Part shown: positions 14,316 to 53,292 of the stretch, piece by piece
Position numbering within the stretch: the stretch's first letter is position 1
How the letters are laid out: the number at the start of each line of letters is the position of its first letter
Assembly: GCA_016703335.1 (NCBI GenBank)
Contig: JADJCG010000020.1
Span: forward strand, 14,981-78,980
Direction of reading: 5' to 3'
Length of the DNA: 64,000 nucleotides
DNA from: Caulobacteraceae bacterium
GTDB taxonomy: Bacteria > Pseudomonadota > Alphaproteobacteria > Caulobacterales > Aquidulcibacteraceae
The notes under the pieces: model-generated
What the model was told of the DNA's origin: nothing
Seen by the model: only the letters and a program-made list of their open reading frames with translations
Databases searched by the model: none
Position numbers and translations under genes: made by a program

Positions 14316-15548
14316 CTAACTCAGGAGCTTCCGCGCCTTATGCAAGGCCTCGACCAGCGCATCGACCTCTTCAAGACGATTATAGCACGCAAAACTCGCA
14401 CGCGCTGTTGCGGTAACGCCGAGACGCTGCATCAGAGGTTGCGCGCAATGATGGCCGGCGCGGATGGCGACACCCTGCCGATCCAGTATCTGCGCCACGT
14501 CGTGCGGGTGCGCGCCTTCAACTGAGAACGCGACGATAGCACCTTTGTCCGCGGCAGCGCCGTGCAGCTTCACCCAGTTTAGTTCGCGCAACGCACTCAT
14601 CGCGCGATCACGCAGCGCACCCTCGTGTGCTTCAATGGCGGCGCGATCCTGGCTCTCGATCCAATCGATGGCTGCCTTCAGGCCAACCGCTTCGATGATA
14701 GGCGGCGTGCCGGCTTCGAAGCGATGCGGCGGTTCATTGTAAGTAATGCGCTCGCGTTCAACGACGTCGATCATCTCGCCGCCGCCTTCGAATGGCTGCA
14801 TCGCCGCCAACAGATCGCGCTTGCCGTAAAGCACGCCAATACCAGTCGGGCCGTAGAGCTTGTGACCAGTAAACACGTAGAAGTCGGCATCAATCGCCTG
14901 AACATCGACCTGCCCATGCACAGTCGCCTGACAACCATCGAAGAGCACTTTCACGCCCCTGGCGTGCGCGATGCGCGCGATGTCCGCTGCCGGCGTCTTA
15001 GCGCCAAGCACATTGGACATGTGCGTGATCGCGACCAGTTTCGTCTTCGGCCCGATCAGCGCATCGAGCGCCGCCAGATCGATGCCGCCATCATCGTCGA
15101 TATCGAGCCATCTCAGCACCGCGCCTTTGCGCTCGCGCAGGAAGTGCCAAGGCACGATGTTAGAGTGGTGCTCCATCACCGACAGCACGATCTCATCGCC
15201 CGGTTCTACGTCGAGGCCAGCCGCCACGATGTTGATCGCGTGCGTACCGCCCTTGGTGAAGATGATGCTATCAGTCGTCGGTGCGTTGATGAAGCGCGCA
15301 ACAGTGCTCCGCGCCGCCTCAAATGCCTCTGTGGTCTCGTTCGCCAGCGTGTGCAGCCCGCGGTGAACGTTCGCGTACGCGCCGCGCATCTGCGCGGCCA
15401 TCGCTTCGATCACCGCTTCAGGCTTCTGGGCACTCGCGGCGTTGTCCAGATAAACAAGCGCGTGATCGTTCACCGAACGCCCAAGGATCGCGAATTGCGC
15501 GCGAACGGCGTCTACATCAAACGGTCGGTGGAATAGAGGCGCATTCAT
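14316..15548 (-). CDS. sufS: Cysteine desulfurase SufS
   Basis: YLDNAASAQKP, TGHKLYGPTG, RAGHHCAQP. Confidence 0.95.
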   Translation of the reverse strand: MNAPLFHRPFDVDAVRAQFAILGRSVNDHALVYLDNAASAQKPEAVIEAMAAQMRGAYANVHRGLHTLANETTEAFEAARSTVARFINAPTTDSIIFTKGGTHAINIVAAGLDVEPGDEIVLSVMEHHSNIVPWHFLRERKGAVLRWLDIDDDGGIDLAALDALIGPKTKLVAITHMSNVLGAKTPAADIARIAHARGVKVLFDGCQATVHGQVDVQAIDADFYVFTGHKLYGPTGIGVLYGKRDLLAAMQPFEGGGEMIDVVERERITYNEPPHRFEAGTPPIIEAVGLKAAIDWIESQDRAAIEAHEGALRDRAMSALRELNWVKLHGAAADKGAIVAFSVEGAHPHDVAQILDRQGVAIRAGHHCAQPLMQRLGVTATARASFACYNRLEEVDALVEALHKARKLLS

Positions 15549-47512: not shown

Positions 47513-48256
47513 GTGACAAAGCCATTTCCAACCAAGAATCTGCGCTTCTTTCTGACAGCGCCGTCTCCGTGTCCGTATTTGCCGGGCCGGAAGGAGCGCA
47601 AGGTTTTCACCGCGCTCGATGGCCTCGACGCCGGCGAACTACACGATGTGCTCACTGGCGCGGGCTTCAGGCGTTCGCAGAACATTGCTTACAGACCTTC
47701 ATGCGACGCCTGCGATGCGTGCATCTCTGCGCGCGTGCCGGTTGAGAAATTCGAGTTCACGCGCCGGTGGCGCAAGATCATGCTGCGCAACGCCGACCTC
47801 ACGCGTACGCTTCGCCCGGCGCAGGCCACGGAAGAGCAATTTCGTCTGCTGCGCCGATATCTCGCGTCCCGTCACGCCGACGGCGGCATGGCTGAAATGA
47901 GTTTTACGGACTTCGCCGCCATGGTGGAGGAGTCCGCCGTCCACACGCACATCGTCGAATATCGGTACAGCGACGGCCCGAACAAAGGCGAACTCGCTGC
48001 CGCTGCCTTGGTGGACGCGCTCGGGGACGGACTTTCGATGGTCTATTCGTTCTTCAATCCTGAAGACGCGCGCCGCAGCCCTGGCGTCTACATCATCCTG
48101 GATCACATCCAGCAGGCCCGCGCCGCAGGCTTCGGCTATCTTTATCTCGGCTACTGGATCCCAGGCTCGGACAAGATGCAATACAAGGCCGAGTTCCGCC
48201 CGCTTGAGCTGCTGCTGGGGGGCGAGTGGCGCCCTTACGAGCCGGTGCAGTTCTAA
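47513..48256 (+). CDS. Arginyl-tRNA-protein transferase / Asp-Glu leucyltransferase (ATE/Bpt family)
   Basis: CPYLPGR.ERK, GFRRSQ..AYRP.C..C..C, YLYLGYWI...KM.YK. Confidence 0.92.
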   Translation: MTKPFPTKNLRFFLTAPSPCPYLPGRKERKVFTALDGLDAGELHDVLTGAGFRRSQNIAYRPSCDACDACISARVPVEKFEFTRRWRKIMLRNADLTRTLRPAQATEEQFRLLRRYLASRHADGGMAEMSFTDFAAMVEESAVHTHIVEYRYSDGPNKGELAAAALVDALGDGLSMVYSFFNPEDARRSPGVYIILDHIQQARAAGFGYLYLGYWIPGSDKMQYKAEFRPLELLLGGEWRPYEPVQF

Positions 48257-48319
48257 CCTCACGACACATTATCGCGCCGCTGCTTCGCTGTAGGATAGAT
48301 TTCCGCACGAGGTGAAGCC

Positions 48320-48808
48320 ATGGCTGAGTCGAAGAAGGCGCTTTGGCGCTCCAGCGAAATTCCGGCCGCCATGCGGCCCTTCACGCAGAAGCTCAACGCG
48401 AACTCACTGTTTCGCGCCGCAGGCCTTTCGCGCCTGGCCGGTATGAGCCGCGCGCACGTGAGCTTGGTGAAGCTGCCGCCCGGCAAGGATAGCTTCGCCT
48501 ATCACGCGCACATGCTCGAAGAGGAATGGATCTACATCGTCTCCGGCCGCGCGATGGCGGACATTGATGGCAAGACTTCCGAAGTTGGCCCCGGCGACTT
48601 CATGGGCTTTGCGACGCCGTCAGTGCCGCATTTGCTGCGCAACACGTTCGACGAAGAGTGCGTCTACCTGATGGGCGGTGAGGATCGGCCCATAGATGTC
48701 GTCTCGTATCCCGAGAACGATAAGCGCTACCTGCTGATGCAGACCGACAAAGGCACAGAGTTCTACGAATTGGGCGAACCGATCAAACCGATCGGCAAGC
48801 CGGACTAA
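48320..48808 (+). CDS. Cupin domain protein
   Basis: HAHMLEEEWIYIVSG, VGPGDF.GF...H.LRN. Confidence 0.85.
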   Translation: MAESKKALWRSSEIPAAMRPFTQKLNANSLFRAAGLSRLAGMSRAHVSLVKLPPGKDSFAYHAHMLEEEWIYIVSGRAMADIDGKTSEVGPGDFMGFATPSVPHLLRNTFDEECVYLMGGEDRPIDVVSYPENDKRYLLMQTDKGTEFYELGEPIKPIGKPD

Positions 48809-49344
48809 AGCACCACACCTTCGCGCGTACGCGCACCTTCAGGCGCTGCGTAGCCAAACCGCGCGCACACGCGACTGTTCATCGCTTGAGGGCCTGGCGG
48901 CTCATCGCCGGAGAAAACAAGCAGGGTGACGACCGTCGCACGCTCGTCGTAGGCCAACGCCACGTACTGAGGACGCTCAGCGCCGCACAAGCCGATCACG
49001 CCATCGGGTACGACCTGTTCGGTGACACGGCGCAGCTCGACGTTCAAGTTTCCAGGGCCGACCACGGCAGCGGCATAGCTATCCCCGTTCTTCGCCATGA
49101 GATCGCCGCCGCGGCGCGGGTTCAGCGTGCGTGTGTAGAGGGTGATGCCGTTGGTGAAGGTTACGCCCGCGCGTTGGATGACCATCCCACCGGTGACCGA
49201 GCGCGCCGTATTCGATGACGCTTTGTAGTCACCGCTCAACTCGGTGGTGCTGGGAGGCCGCGCGTTGGTCGCCGCGTCCGAATTGGGCGCCGCCGTGCAG
49301 GCGCAGAGCGCGAGCAATGAGAGGGCGGCGAGGACGTAGCGCAT
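48805..49344 (-). CDS. Hypothetical lipoprotein (paralog of 50350-50877)
   Basis: Lipobox; SNTA.S.TG motif; two conserved Cys. Confidence 0.7.
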   Translation of the reverse strand: MRYVLAALSLLALCACTAAPNSDAATNARPPSTTELSGDYKASSNTARSVTGGMVIQRAGVTFTNGITLYTRTLNPRRGGDLMAKNGDSYAAAVVGPGNLNVELRRVTEQVVPDGVIGLCGAERPQYVALAYDERATVVTLLVFSGDEPPGPQAMNSRVCARFGYAAPEGARTREGVVL

Positions 49345-49487: not shown

Positions 49488-50294
49488 TCATGGTGCGTAT
49501 CCCAGGTTGACCAAGAATCCTTCGGCGAGAGTCGCGGCCTGTGCCGAGATGGCTTCATCCGGTTGCGGCGTTTCGCGATCGTTGATGCCAGCGGGCGTGA
49601 ACAAGTGGCCGTAGCCGCGATAGATCTTCAACACACAGCGATCACCATAGGTGCGCATCGCCTCGCAAAAGCGCTGCGCGCCGGGCAGCGGTGTTTCGCT
49701 ATCGACGTCGCCTTGCAGGATCAAAGTCGGCGGCAAGCCGGCGCGCACGTTCGACAAGGGCGACAACTCCCGCGCTGCTTCTTCGCCGGCCAAACGCGCA
49801 AACCAGCCATCGCGCTCCAGATCGAGCGCTGGCGAAACCAGCACAAGCGCGTTGTGCCGCGCACGGGTATCCTCGGATTGCGCGGTTGACACTGCGATCT
49901 GGCCACCGGCGGAGACGCCGTAGGCGGCGATGCGGGTTGGGTCGATGTGAAGTGTGGCTGCGTTGTCGCGAAGCCAGCGGATGACGCTACGCGCGTCGGC
50001 GGTGGCGAGGCGTGGGTTGCCGAGGCGATACTCGACAGAGACCGTGAGCATGCCGCGCTCGGCGAAGCGGCGCGCGCGTGGGTACATCCATGTAGCGTCA
50101 CCGGCGACCCAGCCGCCGCCATGCAGCAGCACGACTGCGCCTCGGGCGGCTGAACTTGGGCCTGTATCGAACACGTGGGCTTCGACAATAGCGCCGTCTT
50201 CGCTCGCGATGCGCTCAACGCGTGGCGCGCGTTCGGTCTGCGCCGATGCGTTCAGCGCAATGAGCCAAAACAATCCCGCAAACACAGCCCGCAT
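49488..50294 (-). CDS. Secreted alpha/beta hydrolase (HSL-type esterase)
   Basis: Signal peptide, HGGGW, GVSAGG, GDVD, GYGH. Confidence 0.88.
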   Translation of the reverse strand: MRAVFAGLFWLIALNASAQTERAPRVERIASEDGAIVEAHVFDTGPSSAARGAVVLLHGGGWVAGDATWMYPRARRFAERGMLTVSVEYRLGNPRLATADARSVIRWLRDNAATLHIDPTRIAAYGVSAGGQIAVSTAQSEDTRARHNALVLVSPALDLERDGWFARLAGEEAARELSPLSNVRAGLPPTLILQGDVDSETPLPGAQRFCEAMRTYGDRCVLKIYRGYGHLFTPAGINDRETPQPDEAISAQAATLAEGFLVNLGYAP

Positions 50295-50349: not shown

Positions 50350-50877
50350 CTATTGGGCGGCCGCCAGCGCGTAATTGAACGTGCCGCAGAGTTGCGAGTT
50401 GTGGGCGTTCGGACCGGGCGCGTCGGCGCCGGAGAAGACGAGAAGTGACAGCGTCTCCGTGCCGTGCGCGACGATGACGTGGCTCACCGTTTGCCCCTCG
50501 CCGCACAATTGCGGATCGCGCGCATCGGCGGCAACGCGGACAAGATCGACGCGGCGCACTTCCATGTTGAGAATGTTTGTATTGCCGGTGACGTCGCGCG
50601 CTGTGCCGCCGCCTGCCGACAAATCTGCGTCGGGCATCAACATCGTCTCGGTGCGGGCGCCTTCGATGCGAAAGCCTTTCTCAAAGCTCAACACGTCCGG
50701 CGCGAGATCGAGGGCGCCGGTGATCGACATCGCCGTATTCGAGATTGCGTCGTAGTGAGCGACGAATGCTGTGGATGCCGGCGCCTCCGCGGACGTTGCC
50801 GCCGTCTCGGGCGCAGGCGCCGTAGTTTGCCCGCAAGCAGCCAGAGCAAGAGCGGTCAAAGGGAACACGAAGCGCAT
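50350..50877 (-). CDS. Hypothetical lipoprotein (paralog of 48805-49344)
   Basis: Lipobox LAAC; SNTAMSITG; LC...LLVFSG..APGP...C..F.Y. Confidence 0.72.
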   Translation of the reverse strand: MRFVFPLTALALAACGQTTAPAPETAATSAEAPASTAFVAHYDAISNTAMSITGALDLAPDVLSFEKGFRIEGARTETMLMPDADLSAGGGTARDVTGNTNILNMEVRRVDLVRVAADARDPQLCGEGQTVSHVIVAHGTETLSLLVFSGADAPGPNAHNSQLCGTFNYALAAAQ

Positions 50878-50947
50878 GAGATTCTCCTCTGCGTTCCATC
50901 TAGCACGCGAAGCGTGTCCGTCACGCGCGCGGCGCGTACGGAAATAT

Positions 50948-51281
50948 GGGAGGACGGGGCGCGTGGGATACGCCTAGTTTAGTTCCTTGAAGCGCAGATC
51001 ATCGCTGACCGGCGCCGCGCGTCACACGCGCCCCGTTGCGATCTGTGCTCGCCAGGCCGCCACCAGGAGGTCTTTCACTCCCTTGGAACGGTCCCCGGCG
51101 GCGTGCGGGCTTCGTGCCGACAAAGTCCCGGTATGCTCCCGCAGTTGGCGCATTAGAGTTGCTGCTAACCCGCAGGCTTCTCTGCGTCGCAACGCCGAGG
51201 GCGTACGCAGCAGATCACGCTCGATCGCATCCCGGCGCTTCGTGTGGCTCGGCTAGCCTACGAACCTCCCGTGCGCGGGAC
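50948..51281 (-). ncRNA. Candidate ~330-nt structured non-coding RNA of unknown class
   Basis: Nested inverted repeats found by eye; G-U pairs favour the minus strand; -10-like CATACT at 51293-51288. Confidence 0.5.
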
Positions 51282-51308
51282 GGCGTGAGTATGGCGCGGG
51301 TTCGGAGG

Positions 51309-51376
51309 TGTGGGATAGATTCTGGCGCGGGCGTTGATGGATATGGGATTTTGGGTGGTTTGCTGTGGGATAGATT
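51309..51376. repeat. 13-bp perfect direct repeat TGTGGGATAGATT x2 (51309-51321, 51364-51376)
   Basis: Read directly; 55-bp period. Confidence 0.85.
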
Positions 51377-51759
51377 GGGAGCACGCGCGAGTCAGTGATG
51401 GCTGGCAGGAACCGGAGCGCAGGTTCGCGTGCGGGGCCTGTGAACCGGGCCAACCATAGCTTGCCTTCAGGAGGAGAGGCTTCCACCTCCGCCGCTCTCC
51501 AACCCAACGCGCTCTTCCCCCCGCGCCCGCCCACCCACCCCAGCATCAGTTCCTATCTAGGCCTGGGAATTTCGGGACGCCTCAGCGGGGGGCTTCTGCG
51601 AGGTCCACGCGTCCGTGTCAGGCGACCGCCCCGGGGCTTCAAGGAGCCGTCGGTCGCTTCCATGCGCGGCAGGGGGCGTTCGACTGACCTGCGCTTGGGG
51701 GCGCTGCTGCGGGTCGCTGCTCGCTTTTTTATCGGGTCGTCTTCACCGCTCACGCGCCC

Positions 51760-53292
51760 TCACAGCGGAATGTTGTCGTGCTTCTTCCAGGGGTTCTCTA
51801 GCTTTTTGTTCTTCAGCGTGCCGAGGGCGCGGATGATGCGCTTGCGGGTTTCGCGGGGCATGATCACGTCGTCGACGTAGCCCAGGCTCGCGGCCACAAA
51901 CGGATTGGCGAAGCGGTCGGAATATTCCTGCGTGCGCGCCGCGATCTTTTCCGGATCGCCGATGTCGGCGCGGAAGATGATCTCGACCGCGCCCTTCGCG
52001 CCCATCACCGCGATCTCGGCGCTCGGCCACGCATAGTTCACGTCGCCGCGCAGGTGCTTGGAACTCATGACGTCATAGGCGCCGCCATAGGCTTTGCGCG
52101 TGATCACCGTGACTTTCGGCACCGTGGCTTCGCCGTACGCGAACAAGAGCTTGGCGCCGTGCTTGATGAGGCCGCCCAGCTCTTGCTTGGTGCCCGGCAA
52201 GAAGCCCGGCACGTCCACGAATGTGACGATCGGAATGTTGAAGGCATCGCAGAAGCGCACGAAGCGCGCGGCTTTGCGCGAGGCGTCGCTGTCGAGCACG
52301 CCGGCGAGCACCATCGGCTGGTTGGCGACGATGCCGACGGTGGAGCCATCGAGGCGCGCGAAGGCGGTGATGATGTTCTTGCCGAACTCAGGGCCAATCT
52401 CGAAGAAGTCGCCCTCGTCGACCACCTTCAGGATCAACTCCTTCATGTCGTAGGGCTTGTTCGGATTGTCGGGGATCAGGCGATTGAGCGACGTTTCCTC
52501 GCGCGTGACATCATCTAAGTGCGGGCGCGTCGGCGGCTTTTCGCGGTTGGAGAGCGGCAGGAAATCGATCAGGCGGCGCATCTGCGTCAGCGTCTCGAAA
52601 TCGTTTTCGTAGGCGCCGTCGGCGACACCTGATTTGGCCGCGTGCACGCGCGCGCCGCCGAGTTCTTCGGCCGTCACGACTTCGTTGGTCACGGTCTTCA
52701 CCACGTCAGGCCCGGTCACGAACATGTAGCTCGTATCCTTCACCATGAAGATGAAGTCGGTCATCGCCGGCGAATACACATCGCCGCCCGCGCACGGGCC
52801 CATGATGACGCTGATCTGCGGAATGACGCCCGAGGCCAGAATGTTGCGCTGGAAGATGTCGGCGTAGCCAGCCAGCGATTCCACGCCTTCTTGAATGCGC
52901 GCGCCGCCGGCGTCGAAAATCCCGACGATCGGCGCGCCGTTCTTCATCGCCATGTCCTGCACTTTGCAGATCTTGGCCGCGTGCGCGCCCGAGAGCGAAC
53001 CGCCGAACACGGTGAAGTCCTTGGAGAAGACGTAGACCAAGCGGCCATTGATGGTGCCGTAGCCGGTGACGACGCCGTCGCCCGGGATTTTGGTTTTCTC
53101 CATGCCGAATTCGTGGCTGCGATGTTCGACGAACATGTCGAACTCTTCGAAGCTGCCTTCATCGAGCAAAAGCTCAATGCGCTCGCGCGCCGTGAGTTTG
53201 CCTTTGGCGTGCTGAGCCGCGTGGCGCTTCTCGCCCCGGCCTGCGCGCGCGGCGGCGCGTTTGGCTTCGAGTGCGGCGATGATGTCTTTCAT
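51760..53292 (-). CDS. pccB: Acyl-CoA (propionyl-CoA) carboxylase beta subunit
   Basis: [39 protein letters not shown]. Confidence 0.93.

Follow-up and report, generated by a model that had tools for sequence, protein, structure and literature searches.

A dispersed family of probable large structured RNA genes with a conserved promoter-like module in Caulobacterales

Introduction

In a 64,000-nt stretch of DNA from a Caulobacteraceae bacterium (contig JADJCG010000020.1, forward-strand positions 14,981 to 78,980; this whole stretch is called the window below), two minus-strand genes are separated by a gap of 882 nt. An initial annotation of the window had placed a structured RNA at 50948-51293, inside this gap, and had left open whether it was a large non-coding RNA (ncRNA), a ribozyme-like RNA or a non-autonomous mobile element. 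The question raised by the locus is which of these it is. All coordinates are window positions unless another contig or locus is named, and the host genome, G000, is a 3.65-Mb assembly in 36 contigs that is 85.6% complete. Our comparative analysis indicates that window 50945-51377 probably belongs, as one of several paralogs, to a lineage-specific family of ncRNA genes that are highly structured and independently transcribed, and this RNA very probably has a function.

Results and discussion

A repeated unit with a conserved RNA structure

Profile searches delimited a discrete repeated unit of about 435 bp at window 50945-51377. The annotated span was thus real but too short, since the unit reaches to about 51377 and includes a promoter-like module with two direct repeats that had been missed. 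The unit consists of this module, on the minus strand, and of an RNA of about 335 nt running from about 51281 to 50945. Further copies were found: about ten in G000, and at least one in 22 of the 24 sampled genomes of the genus. The open reading frames (ORFs) crossing the span, which had looked spurious in the initial annotation, received negative coding scores in a codon-usage model trained on the long ORFs of G000, whereas the flanking genes scored positive.

Structure was compared in an alignment (A2) of 37 copies without large insertions, which were set in minus-strand orientation and extend from the -10 box through the 3′ tail. RNAalifold predicted 52 pairs in A2, of which 31 showed compensatory double changes. 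A hand-curated structure of 12 helices and 71 pairs was then judged against controls in which the 3′ partners were slid by 1-3 columns, and against 500 shuffles. In A2 this structure was 90.9% paired, compared with 32-50% for the slid controls, and both-sided changes were seen in 43 of the 71 pairs (13-19 in the slid controls). The covariation score was 0.296 versus 0.147 for shuffled alignments, and none of the 500 shuffles matched any of the measures. The structure is kept by compensatory substitutions beyond these controls, as in a functional structured RNA. The predicted RNA and its domains are as follows.

50945-51281, minus strand: predicted RNA of about 335 nt with covariation-supported structure, starting near 51281 and ending after the CCUCCC tail
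51231-51279, minus strand: 5′ domain, with helices H1 (51279-73/51237-31), H2 (51265-62/51241-38) and H3 (51257-55/51249-47, loop AGCCG)
51038-51228, minus strand: central domain, closed by H4 (51228-23/51043-38) and by the invariant H5 GCGUG/CACGC (51220-16/51105-01)
within the central domain, minus strand: a variable hairpin (51210-51182), H6 (51176-70/51144-38), H7 (51129-27/51109-07), H8 (51100-94/51056-50) and H8c (51082-78/51069-65) with a GUGAAA loop
50955-51035, minus strand: 3′ domain, with H9 (51035-26/50964-55), H10 (51023-17/50973-67) and H11 (51014-08/50999-93)
50948-50953, minus strand: 3′ tail CCUCCC, which pairs with GGGAGG at 51270-65 (P0) and is followed by a short, variably U-rich stretch

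Compensated pairs were found in all three domains. In the 5′ domain they made up 6 of 7 pairs in H1, 4 of 4 in H2 and 2 of 3 in H3. H4 was 97% paired, with 5 of its 6 pairs compensated and with CG in 16 copies and UA in 14, and H8 was 95% paired. The stems of H8c vary by subfamily beneath a conserved loop (GGGAG/CUCCU, UGCG/CGCA and GUCGACG/CGUCGAU). In the 3′ domain, H9 was 97% paired with four compensated pairs (GC/AU/UA at one and UA/CG at another), and 5 of the 7 pairs of H11 were compensated. P0 joins the conserved CGGGAG(G) of the 5′ domain (51271-65) to the tail (C)CUCCC(G) over 6-8 bp in most of the 37 copies, and it likewise covaries (GGAGAGC/GCUCUCC, GGGAGU/ACUCCC and AUGGGAG/CUCCCAU). 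As P0 crosses H1, it is either a pseudoknot or an alternative fold.

The complementary segments of the initial annotation were all located where it had placed them, and several proved to be family features. Its GGGAGG (50948-53) and CCTCCC (51265-70) form P0 and its GCGATCTG and CAGATCAC form H4, GCCGCC/GGCGGC corresponds to H8, and the GUGAAA-loop hairpin enclosed by it to H8c; all four are conserved and covary. CTGCGT/ACGCAG with its inner stem falls in a part of the RNA that differs from one subfamily to another, and the minimum-energy fold of this copy includes it. Two other pairings were not borne out. The cells of GAAGCGC (50989-95) and GCGCTTC (51235-41) were paired in only 28.6% of cases across the copies, and those of GCGGGCT/AACCCGC in 62.9% without any compensation, while H6 and H7 use the latter bases and covary. 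The proposed 5′ hairpin, UCCC/GGGA, competes with H1 and P0; it is conserved, with covariation confined to comparisons between genera.

In minus-strand orientation, 189 G-U cells were counted versus 65 A-C cells, the latter mostly in two poorly aligned helices. This excess indicates the minus strand, in agreement with the strand first proposed. The size of the RNA, its conserved loops and the competing GGGAG/CCUCCC pairings suggest a folded effector or switch rather than a simple antisense small RNA (sRNA).

Promoter module and predicted transcript ends

Upstream of the RNA, the unit carries three conserved elements.

51364-51374, minus strand: distal repeat TCTATCCCACA at the upstream edge of the repeated unit, an exact 13-nt direct repeat 55 nt from the proximal one
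51309-51319, minus strand: proximal repeat TCTATCCCACA, which follows an A-tract and overlaps the -35 region
51288-51293, minus strand: -10 box CATACT, 15 nt after the proximal repeat, with the family consensus (G/T/C)A(T/C)A(C/A)T

The same layout was seen throughout the family, in 50 copies: a TCTATCC-N-ACA repeat (an 11-nt site), about 55 nt, an A-tract with the second repeat, 15 nt and the -10 box. The distal repeat is kept in about 45 of 50 copies at a spacing of 53-56 nt. CATACT, noted earlier for its likeness to a -10 element, is a conserved box in the 37 copies, with an invariant A at position 2 and a nearly invariant T at position 6. In G000, this module alone also precedes four paralogous ORFs of about 240 aa, whose ATG lies about 10 nt after the -10 box (6-8 nt in other genera). 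This is the geometry of a leaderless mRNA, and the predicted start of the RNA was calibrated by it to about 51281. The start originally suggested therefore agrees both with the promoter geometry and with the paralogous leaderless genes. A2 column 13, 7 nt after the -10 box, holds a purine in the copies read. We infer that the RNA is produced and that it ends after the tail.

Two copies in G024 (L026:1500-1810 and L047:484-794) have different promoters and flanks, yet match at 310 of 311 positions in a block that starts 5 nt downstream of the -10 box, ends right after CUCCCUUC and coincides with the predicted transcript. Retro-copying, a possibility raised by this identity, was set aside, as a reverse transcriptase was found neither in G024 nor in most copy-rich genomes; gene conversion would be the simpler reading. 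The possibility that the repeat is a DnaA box (TTATCCACA compared with TATCC-N-ACA) was dropped because of an extra base in almost all copies. A one-repeat version of the module was also observed at 48299-48268 on the minus strand, where a lone TCTATCCTACA site is followed after 15 nt by GATAAT. It points to lower coordinates and is followed by a weakly coding ORF of 187 codons (47699-48262, minus strand).

Dispersal and conservation of the copies

Genomes of the genus that carry the unit hold 2-16 copies, several of them at contig ends, and the RNA paralogs within G000 are 69-75% identical. The genes flanking the copies are unrelated, encoding a lipoprotein, an XRE regulator, GatB, an outer-membrane barrel protein, a flavin adenine dinucleotide (FAD) monooxygenase and a XerC/D-like recombinase. 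A tree of 50 copies contained within-genome clusters in G059, G017, G019, G021 and G000, and also clades with one copy per genome. Within-genome duplicates share the unit only; L107 and L108, for example, are 94.5% identical over about 417 nt and have unrelated flanks.

Copies at orthologous loci are under purifying selection. At the orthologous locus of G008, the RNA is 91.8%, the promoter 89.6% and the spacer to the next gene 85% identical, compared with 67% for the adjacent gene itself. In G072 and G017 the RNA is 81% identical versus 69% for the gene. The surroundings of the unit in the window are as follows.

50350-50877, minus strand: lipoprotein-like ORF of 175 aa with the lipobox LALAAC and without a Pfam family
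50878-50944, minus strand: spacer of 67 nt between the RNA and the lipoprotein-like gene, holding the Shine-Dalgarno sequence GAGGAG of the gene that starts at 50877
51760-53292, minus strand: PccB-type carboxyltransferase gene, on the other flank of the 882-nt gap

Judged by flanking genes, G049 is the closest relative; about 4 nt separate its lipoprotein gene from pccB, and all of window 50925-51758 is missing. The empty site in this genome reads TCACCGGC. A possible 8-bp direct repeat, TCACGCGC, at 50919-50926 and 51747-51754, marks the junctions of the missing 834-bp segment and not those of the unit.

Such a pattern could also be produced by a non-autonomous mobile DNA element similar to miniature inverted-repeat transposable elements (MITEs), palindrome-associated transposable elements (PATEs) or repetitive extragenic palindromic (REP) sequences. 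In that case the hairpins would act in single-stranded DNA during transposition, the RNA would be incidental, and the direct repeats would be bound by a transposase or recombinase encoded elsewhere, a role that the 240-aa protein might play. The dispersal among unrelated intergenic sites, the sharp-edged duplicates, the empty site in G049, the many copies at contig ends and the repeat pair at one end, shared with a multicopy protein gene, all fit this explanation, and G-T wobble is tolerated in DNA too. Against it, the two marks of a MITE were not seen: the unit ends are not joined by a terminal inverted repeat, and the flanks of 50 copies share no target duplication. Hairpins lie near both unit ends, but the Y1 transposase (PF01797) that would mobilise a PATE was not found in the incomplete G000, and no conserved 4-5-nt target precedes the copies. 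A TnpB-type domain (PF07282) and a reverse transcriptase (RVT_1) were not found in this 85.6%-complete assembly either. RVT_1 is sporadic in the genus (17 of 61 genomes) and was not found in the copy-rich G008, G017, G019, G021, G024 and G072. Unlike a decaying parasite, the family has old within-genome paralogs (about 70% identical) and orthologues that, at 81-92%, have diverged less than the flanking gene. Conservation of the -10 box and of its spacing is as in a working promoter, the same box precedes leaderless ORFs, and no nuclease or recombinase fold can be recognised in the 240-aa protein. The mobility initially considered is thus only partly supported, by the dispersal and the sharp-edged duplicates but not by the age and conservation of the copies or by the enzymes looked for in G000, and we regard a mobile DNA element as an unlikely explanation of the unit.

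The position of this copy raises another alternative, a cis-acting, riboswitch-like leader with a portable promoter, which would control the downstream gene (here the 175-aa lipoprotein gene) through an anti-Shine-Dalgarno action of the CCUCCC tail. The RNA is co-oriented with the lipoprotein gene and 67 nt upstream of it, the conserved spacer lies between them, and the pairing recurs: an RNA copy adjoins orthologues of the 175-aa gene in G008, G072, G017, G002 and G056 and distant paralogs in G021, G059 and G058. A downstream gene was called for 42 copies and was co-oriented in 25 of them, often within 80 nt; the tail of one subfamily is able to pair with a GGAGG after it, and no clear terminator was found. 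The remaining 17 of 42 are convergent with the next gene and face its 3′ end. Where both neighbouring genes were called, they are co-oriented for 9 copies, convergent for 9, divergent for 4 and in the opposite co-orientation for 3. No downstream target exists for the 17 copies facing 3′ ends or the 9 between convergent genes. Where a downstream gene is present, it may encode an XRE regulator, GatB, an outer-membrane barrel or a lipoprotein, and a common downstream family was rejected; in most copies, moreover, the tail is paired within the RNA by P0. A cis-acting leader is accordingly judged to be quite improbable as a description of the family.

The 240-aa protein that shares the promoter module

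The four ORFs of G000 that follow the same promoter module are arginine-rich and probably leaderless.

C1:17654-18382 (L048:3655-4383): 240-aa ORF
C1:255830-256570 (L049:3831-4571): 240-aa ORF
C19:47698-48402 (L008:1598-2302): 240-aa ORF
C8:116379-117104, minus strand: 240-aa ORF

No Pfam or NCBIfam family was found for this protein. Its homologues are all annotated as hypothetical proteins and come only from Terricaulis or from metagenome-assembled genomes (MAGs) of Hyphomonadaceae, several on contigs of about 1-2 kb. The protein family is multicopy and restricted to Terricaulis-like lineages. Matches, up to eight in a single genome, were obtained in 19 of 24 genomes of the genus and in none of 16 genomes of other genera; a deeper profile also detected it in the sister genus that carries the RNA and in the third family reached by the covariance model described below. 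The AlphaFold model (predicted local distance difference test, pLDDT, 73) showed two helical bundles and a disordered, arginine-rich middle part. A Foldseek search against PDB returned no neighbour for the model, and no nuclease or recombinase fold was recognised.

Owing to the shared promoter, this basic protein is the obvious candidate partner of the RNA. G005, a genome of the genus that is 90% complete, has neither the RNA nor the protein. The repeat motif shifts in step in the RNA and protein families, from ATCC[C/T/A]ACA in this genus to ATCCGAC in the sister genus, which fits one shared trans-acting factor.

Range and novelty

A covariance model of the 3′ half of the RNA (167 positions, 36 pairs) was searched at the order level and matched 16 of 151 genomes in 4 of 40 genera. 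All nine sampled genomes of the genus were matched, including some in which little had been seen by DNA search, and so were both genomes of the sister genus. Further matches came from 3 of 8 genomes in one genus of another family and from a single genome of a third family. None of 150 genomes drawn from 150 other families of the class was matched, a search that doubles as a control of specificity. Distant copies still have the -10 box, the 5′ domain, GAGCG(U/G)G, CCGC(A/C)CGCC, the GU(G/U)AAA loop, H9 and P0, and show new compensations in the 5′ hairpin (CUUCC/GGAAG) and in P0 (GGAAGGG/CCCUUCC). Together, a pattern scan and the model placed the family in Terricaulis sp., Vitreimonas sp. and MAGs labelled Hyphomonadaceae, Caulobacteraceae or Caulobacterales. 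Pattern matches in Pandoraea, Gemmatimonadales, Actinomadura, Amphiplicatus and others were not confirmed by the covariance model and were treated as chance matches.

An Rfam 15 scan of the window at the gathering thresholds returned only a tRNA elsewhere, and at E<=10 the region 50700-51900 gave only chance rows of microRNA (miRNA) and sroE. Rfam also returned nothing on the element in ten other copies or in ten out-of-genus copies, and a literature search for Terricaulis returned nothing on RNAs. The RNA family is new to Rfam and to the searched literature. A group II intron or retron RNA was rejected, as no Rfam intron or retron matched and RVT_1 was not found in G000.

Proposed mechanism and weight of the evidence

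The proposal of a large ncRNA is well supported by a multi-helix structure with compensatory changes, on the proposed strand and downstream of a conserved promoter. Under the reading that we favour, a private promoter formed by the two TCTATCC-N-ACA repeats and the TATAAT-like -10 box would drive minus-strand transcription from about 51281. The product of about 335 nt would fold into three domains with at least 12 helices, and its CCUCCC tail would pair back to the GGGAG of the 5′ domain. It would then act in trans as a folded RNA, possibly as a scaffold for, or a partner of, the basic helical 240-aa protein that has the same promoter. Alternatively, it may be a switch that hides the anti-Shine-Dalgarno-like tail (H1 with P0) or exposes it (5′ hairpin). 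The family would be kept by selection and grow slowly, as the discrete unit duplicates into new intergenic sites.

Several observations weigh against this reading. The minimum free energy of the annotated span gave z-scores of -0.23 (plus strand) and -1.64 (minus strand) relative to dinucleotide shuffles, and the value for the predicted transcript, -2.03, was marginally beyond the shuffles. As single-sequence folding is not significantly better than that of shuffles, the support beyond chance is comparative. G-T wobble is tolerated in single-stranded DNA too, and strand asymmetry alone is therefore no proof of RNA. A sigma-70 consensus scan called no promoter, which is attributed to the non-standard -35 region. 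No canonical terminator follows the tail, and many copies have a weak U-tract or none. Decay and loss of copies also occur, as in G049, which lacks this copy and retains only a stump of another, comprising the promoter plus 84 nt. In G002, G014 and the genus g25, the RNA is present and the protein was not found. The link between RNA and protein has the shared promoter and broad co-occurrence as its whole basis; since the genomes are related, co-occurrence is suggestive and not proof.

The z-scores of the annotated span would also be expected from chance pairing in GC-rich intergenic DNA. This explanation is extremely improbable, given the dozens of homologous copies with compensatory changes and the specificity of the covariance model.

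A more far-reaching possibility, which we hold only tentatively and consider doubtful, is that the RNA and the 240-aa protein form a lineage-specific ribonucleoprotein system of Terricaulis and related Caulobacterales. Both components would be multicopy and would use a private promoter read by a dedicated factor; the system might be self-propagating, with the RNA as its catalytic or switchable core, in which competition of the 5′ hairpin with H1 and P0 would expose or hide the anti-Shine-Dalgarno tail. If true, this would be a new class of large functional RNA and not one more sRNA.

Comparison with known systems

Bacterial ncRNAs of more than about 300 nt with many conserved helices are rare, and those of later-solved function are ribozymes, ribonucleoprotein scaffolds or guide RNAs. 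ROOL, GOLLD, OLE and raiA are large bacterial ncRNAs from comparative genomics, all in Rfam. The present RNA is like them in its unusual size and complexity for a bacterial sRNA, in having been found by covariation and in a function that is not evident from context. It differs in sharing no sequence or structure with them, in a narrower range (one order), in a higher copy number and in a dedicated conserved promoter.

The HEARO (IscB omega-RNA) and TnpB reRNA families are large structured multicopy RNAs of IS200/IS605-type elements. They resemble the present family in being large, multi-helix and dispersed, in having many copies without a neighbouring protein gene and in a variable flank that begins right after a conserved 3′ end. 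In contrast to them, the present RNA has no Rfam match at E<=10, no nuclease ORF beside any copy and a promoter inside the conserved unit. Membership in these families was not indicated, since PF07282 was not found in the 85.6%-complete G000 and the genes beside the copies are unrelated housekeeping genes, although no separate search for IscB-specific domains was made.

With MITEs, REP sequences and their mosaic arrangements (BIME), RIME and Correia-type elements, the unit has in common that it is intergenic, multicopy, discrete, assembly-breaking and present or absent between close relatives. It differs in the absence of terminal inverted repeats, in being much larger than REP sequences and in old copies that are individually conserved across species, and also in having a -10 box of its own and a complex nested fold whose loops are conserved.

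The closest analogue in lifestyle is the group of cuckoo RNAs (alpha-r14/CcsR family, RF02344) of Rhizobiales and Rhodobacteraceae, which have the DUF1127 protein CcaF1 as a neighbour (PMC4615179, PMC8034643). A cuckoo RNA is made up of 2-4 simple hairpins whose loops carry CCUCCUCCC. Like the present family, they are alphaproteobacterial and multicopy, show many compensatory changes and carry a C-rich, anti-Shine-Dalgarno-like motif; some copies have conserved intergenic neighbourhoods, and there is an association with a small uncharacterised protein (PMC4615179). The present RNA, by contrast, is about 335 nt long with at least 12 helices in three domains, has a 6-nt CCUCCC at its 3′ end that is paired in P0, and gave no match to RF02344. 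Its candidate partner also differs from the cuckoo DUF1127 protein, being about 240 aa long, not of DUF1127, and linked by a shared promoter and not by adjacency.

The comparative support for the family is unusually clean, with dozens of diverged copies per clade, compensation in most helices and a specific covariance model. Experiments have two handles: a private conserved promoter with a repeated 11-nt site, and a co-distributed protein family without a known fold. Terricaulis and Vitreimonas have cultured members, which makes transcript mapping, deletion and pull-down feasible. The family would also be an example of a complex RNA gene that multiplies in genomes without recognisable transposition machinery.

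Neighbouring genes and small repeats

The lipoprotein-like gene downstream of the RNA is the last of three paralogous genes in tandem (48805-49344, 49488-50294 and 50350-50877), all on the minus strand and without a Pfam family. The first and third are 40% identical, and the RNA copy lies upstream of the last one. Between the RNA unit and pccB, window 51381-51759 is a non-coding segment of about 380 nt that is unique in G000 and is missing from G049 together with the unit. Within it, 51405-51671 gave no match to the RNA family profile even with filters off, and the segment is unrelated to the 240-aa ORF. A terminator-like hairpin with a T-run was observed in this segment at 51709-51734 on the plus strand.

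About 12 of 50 copies (e.g. L034, L039 and L116) have a hairpin-like motif, GTCCGC..GGGCCAATAGCGGAC, upstream of the distal repeat and 10-45 nt beyond the unit; the motif also precedes the ORF at C1:17654. It could mark a favoured landing site or be a further small repeat. A different, very abundant REP-like repeat lies directly beside one RNA copy (L005:1300-1440; C17:10905-11045 of G000). It has a 35-nt core and extends to about 100 nt, and dozens of copies that are 90-100% identical are present in G008 and G049. Near one copy of the RNA unit in G019, at a distance of about 30 nt, the mmgR/suhB sRNA (RF00519) was detected at L017:1320-1400 with 47.7 bits, above the gathering threshold.

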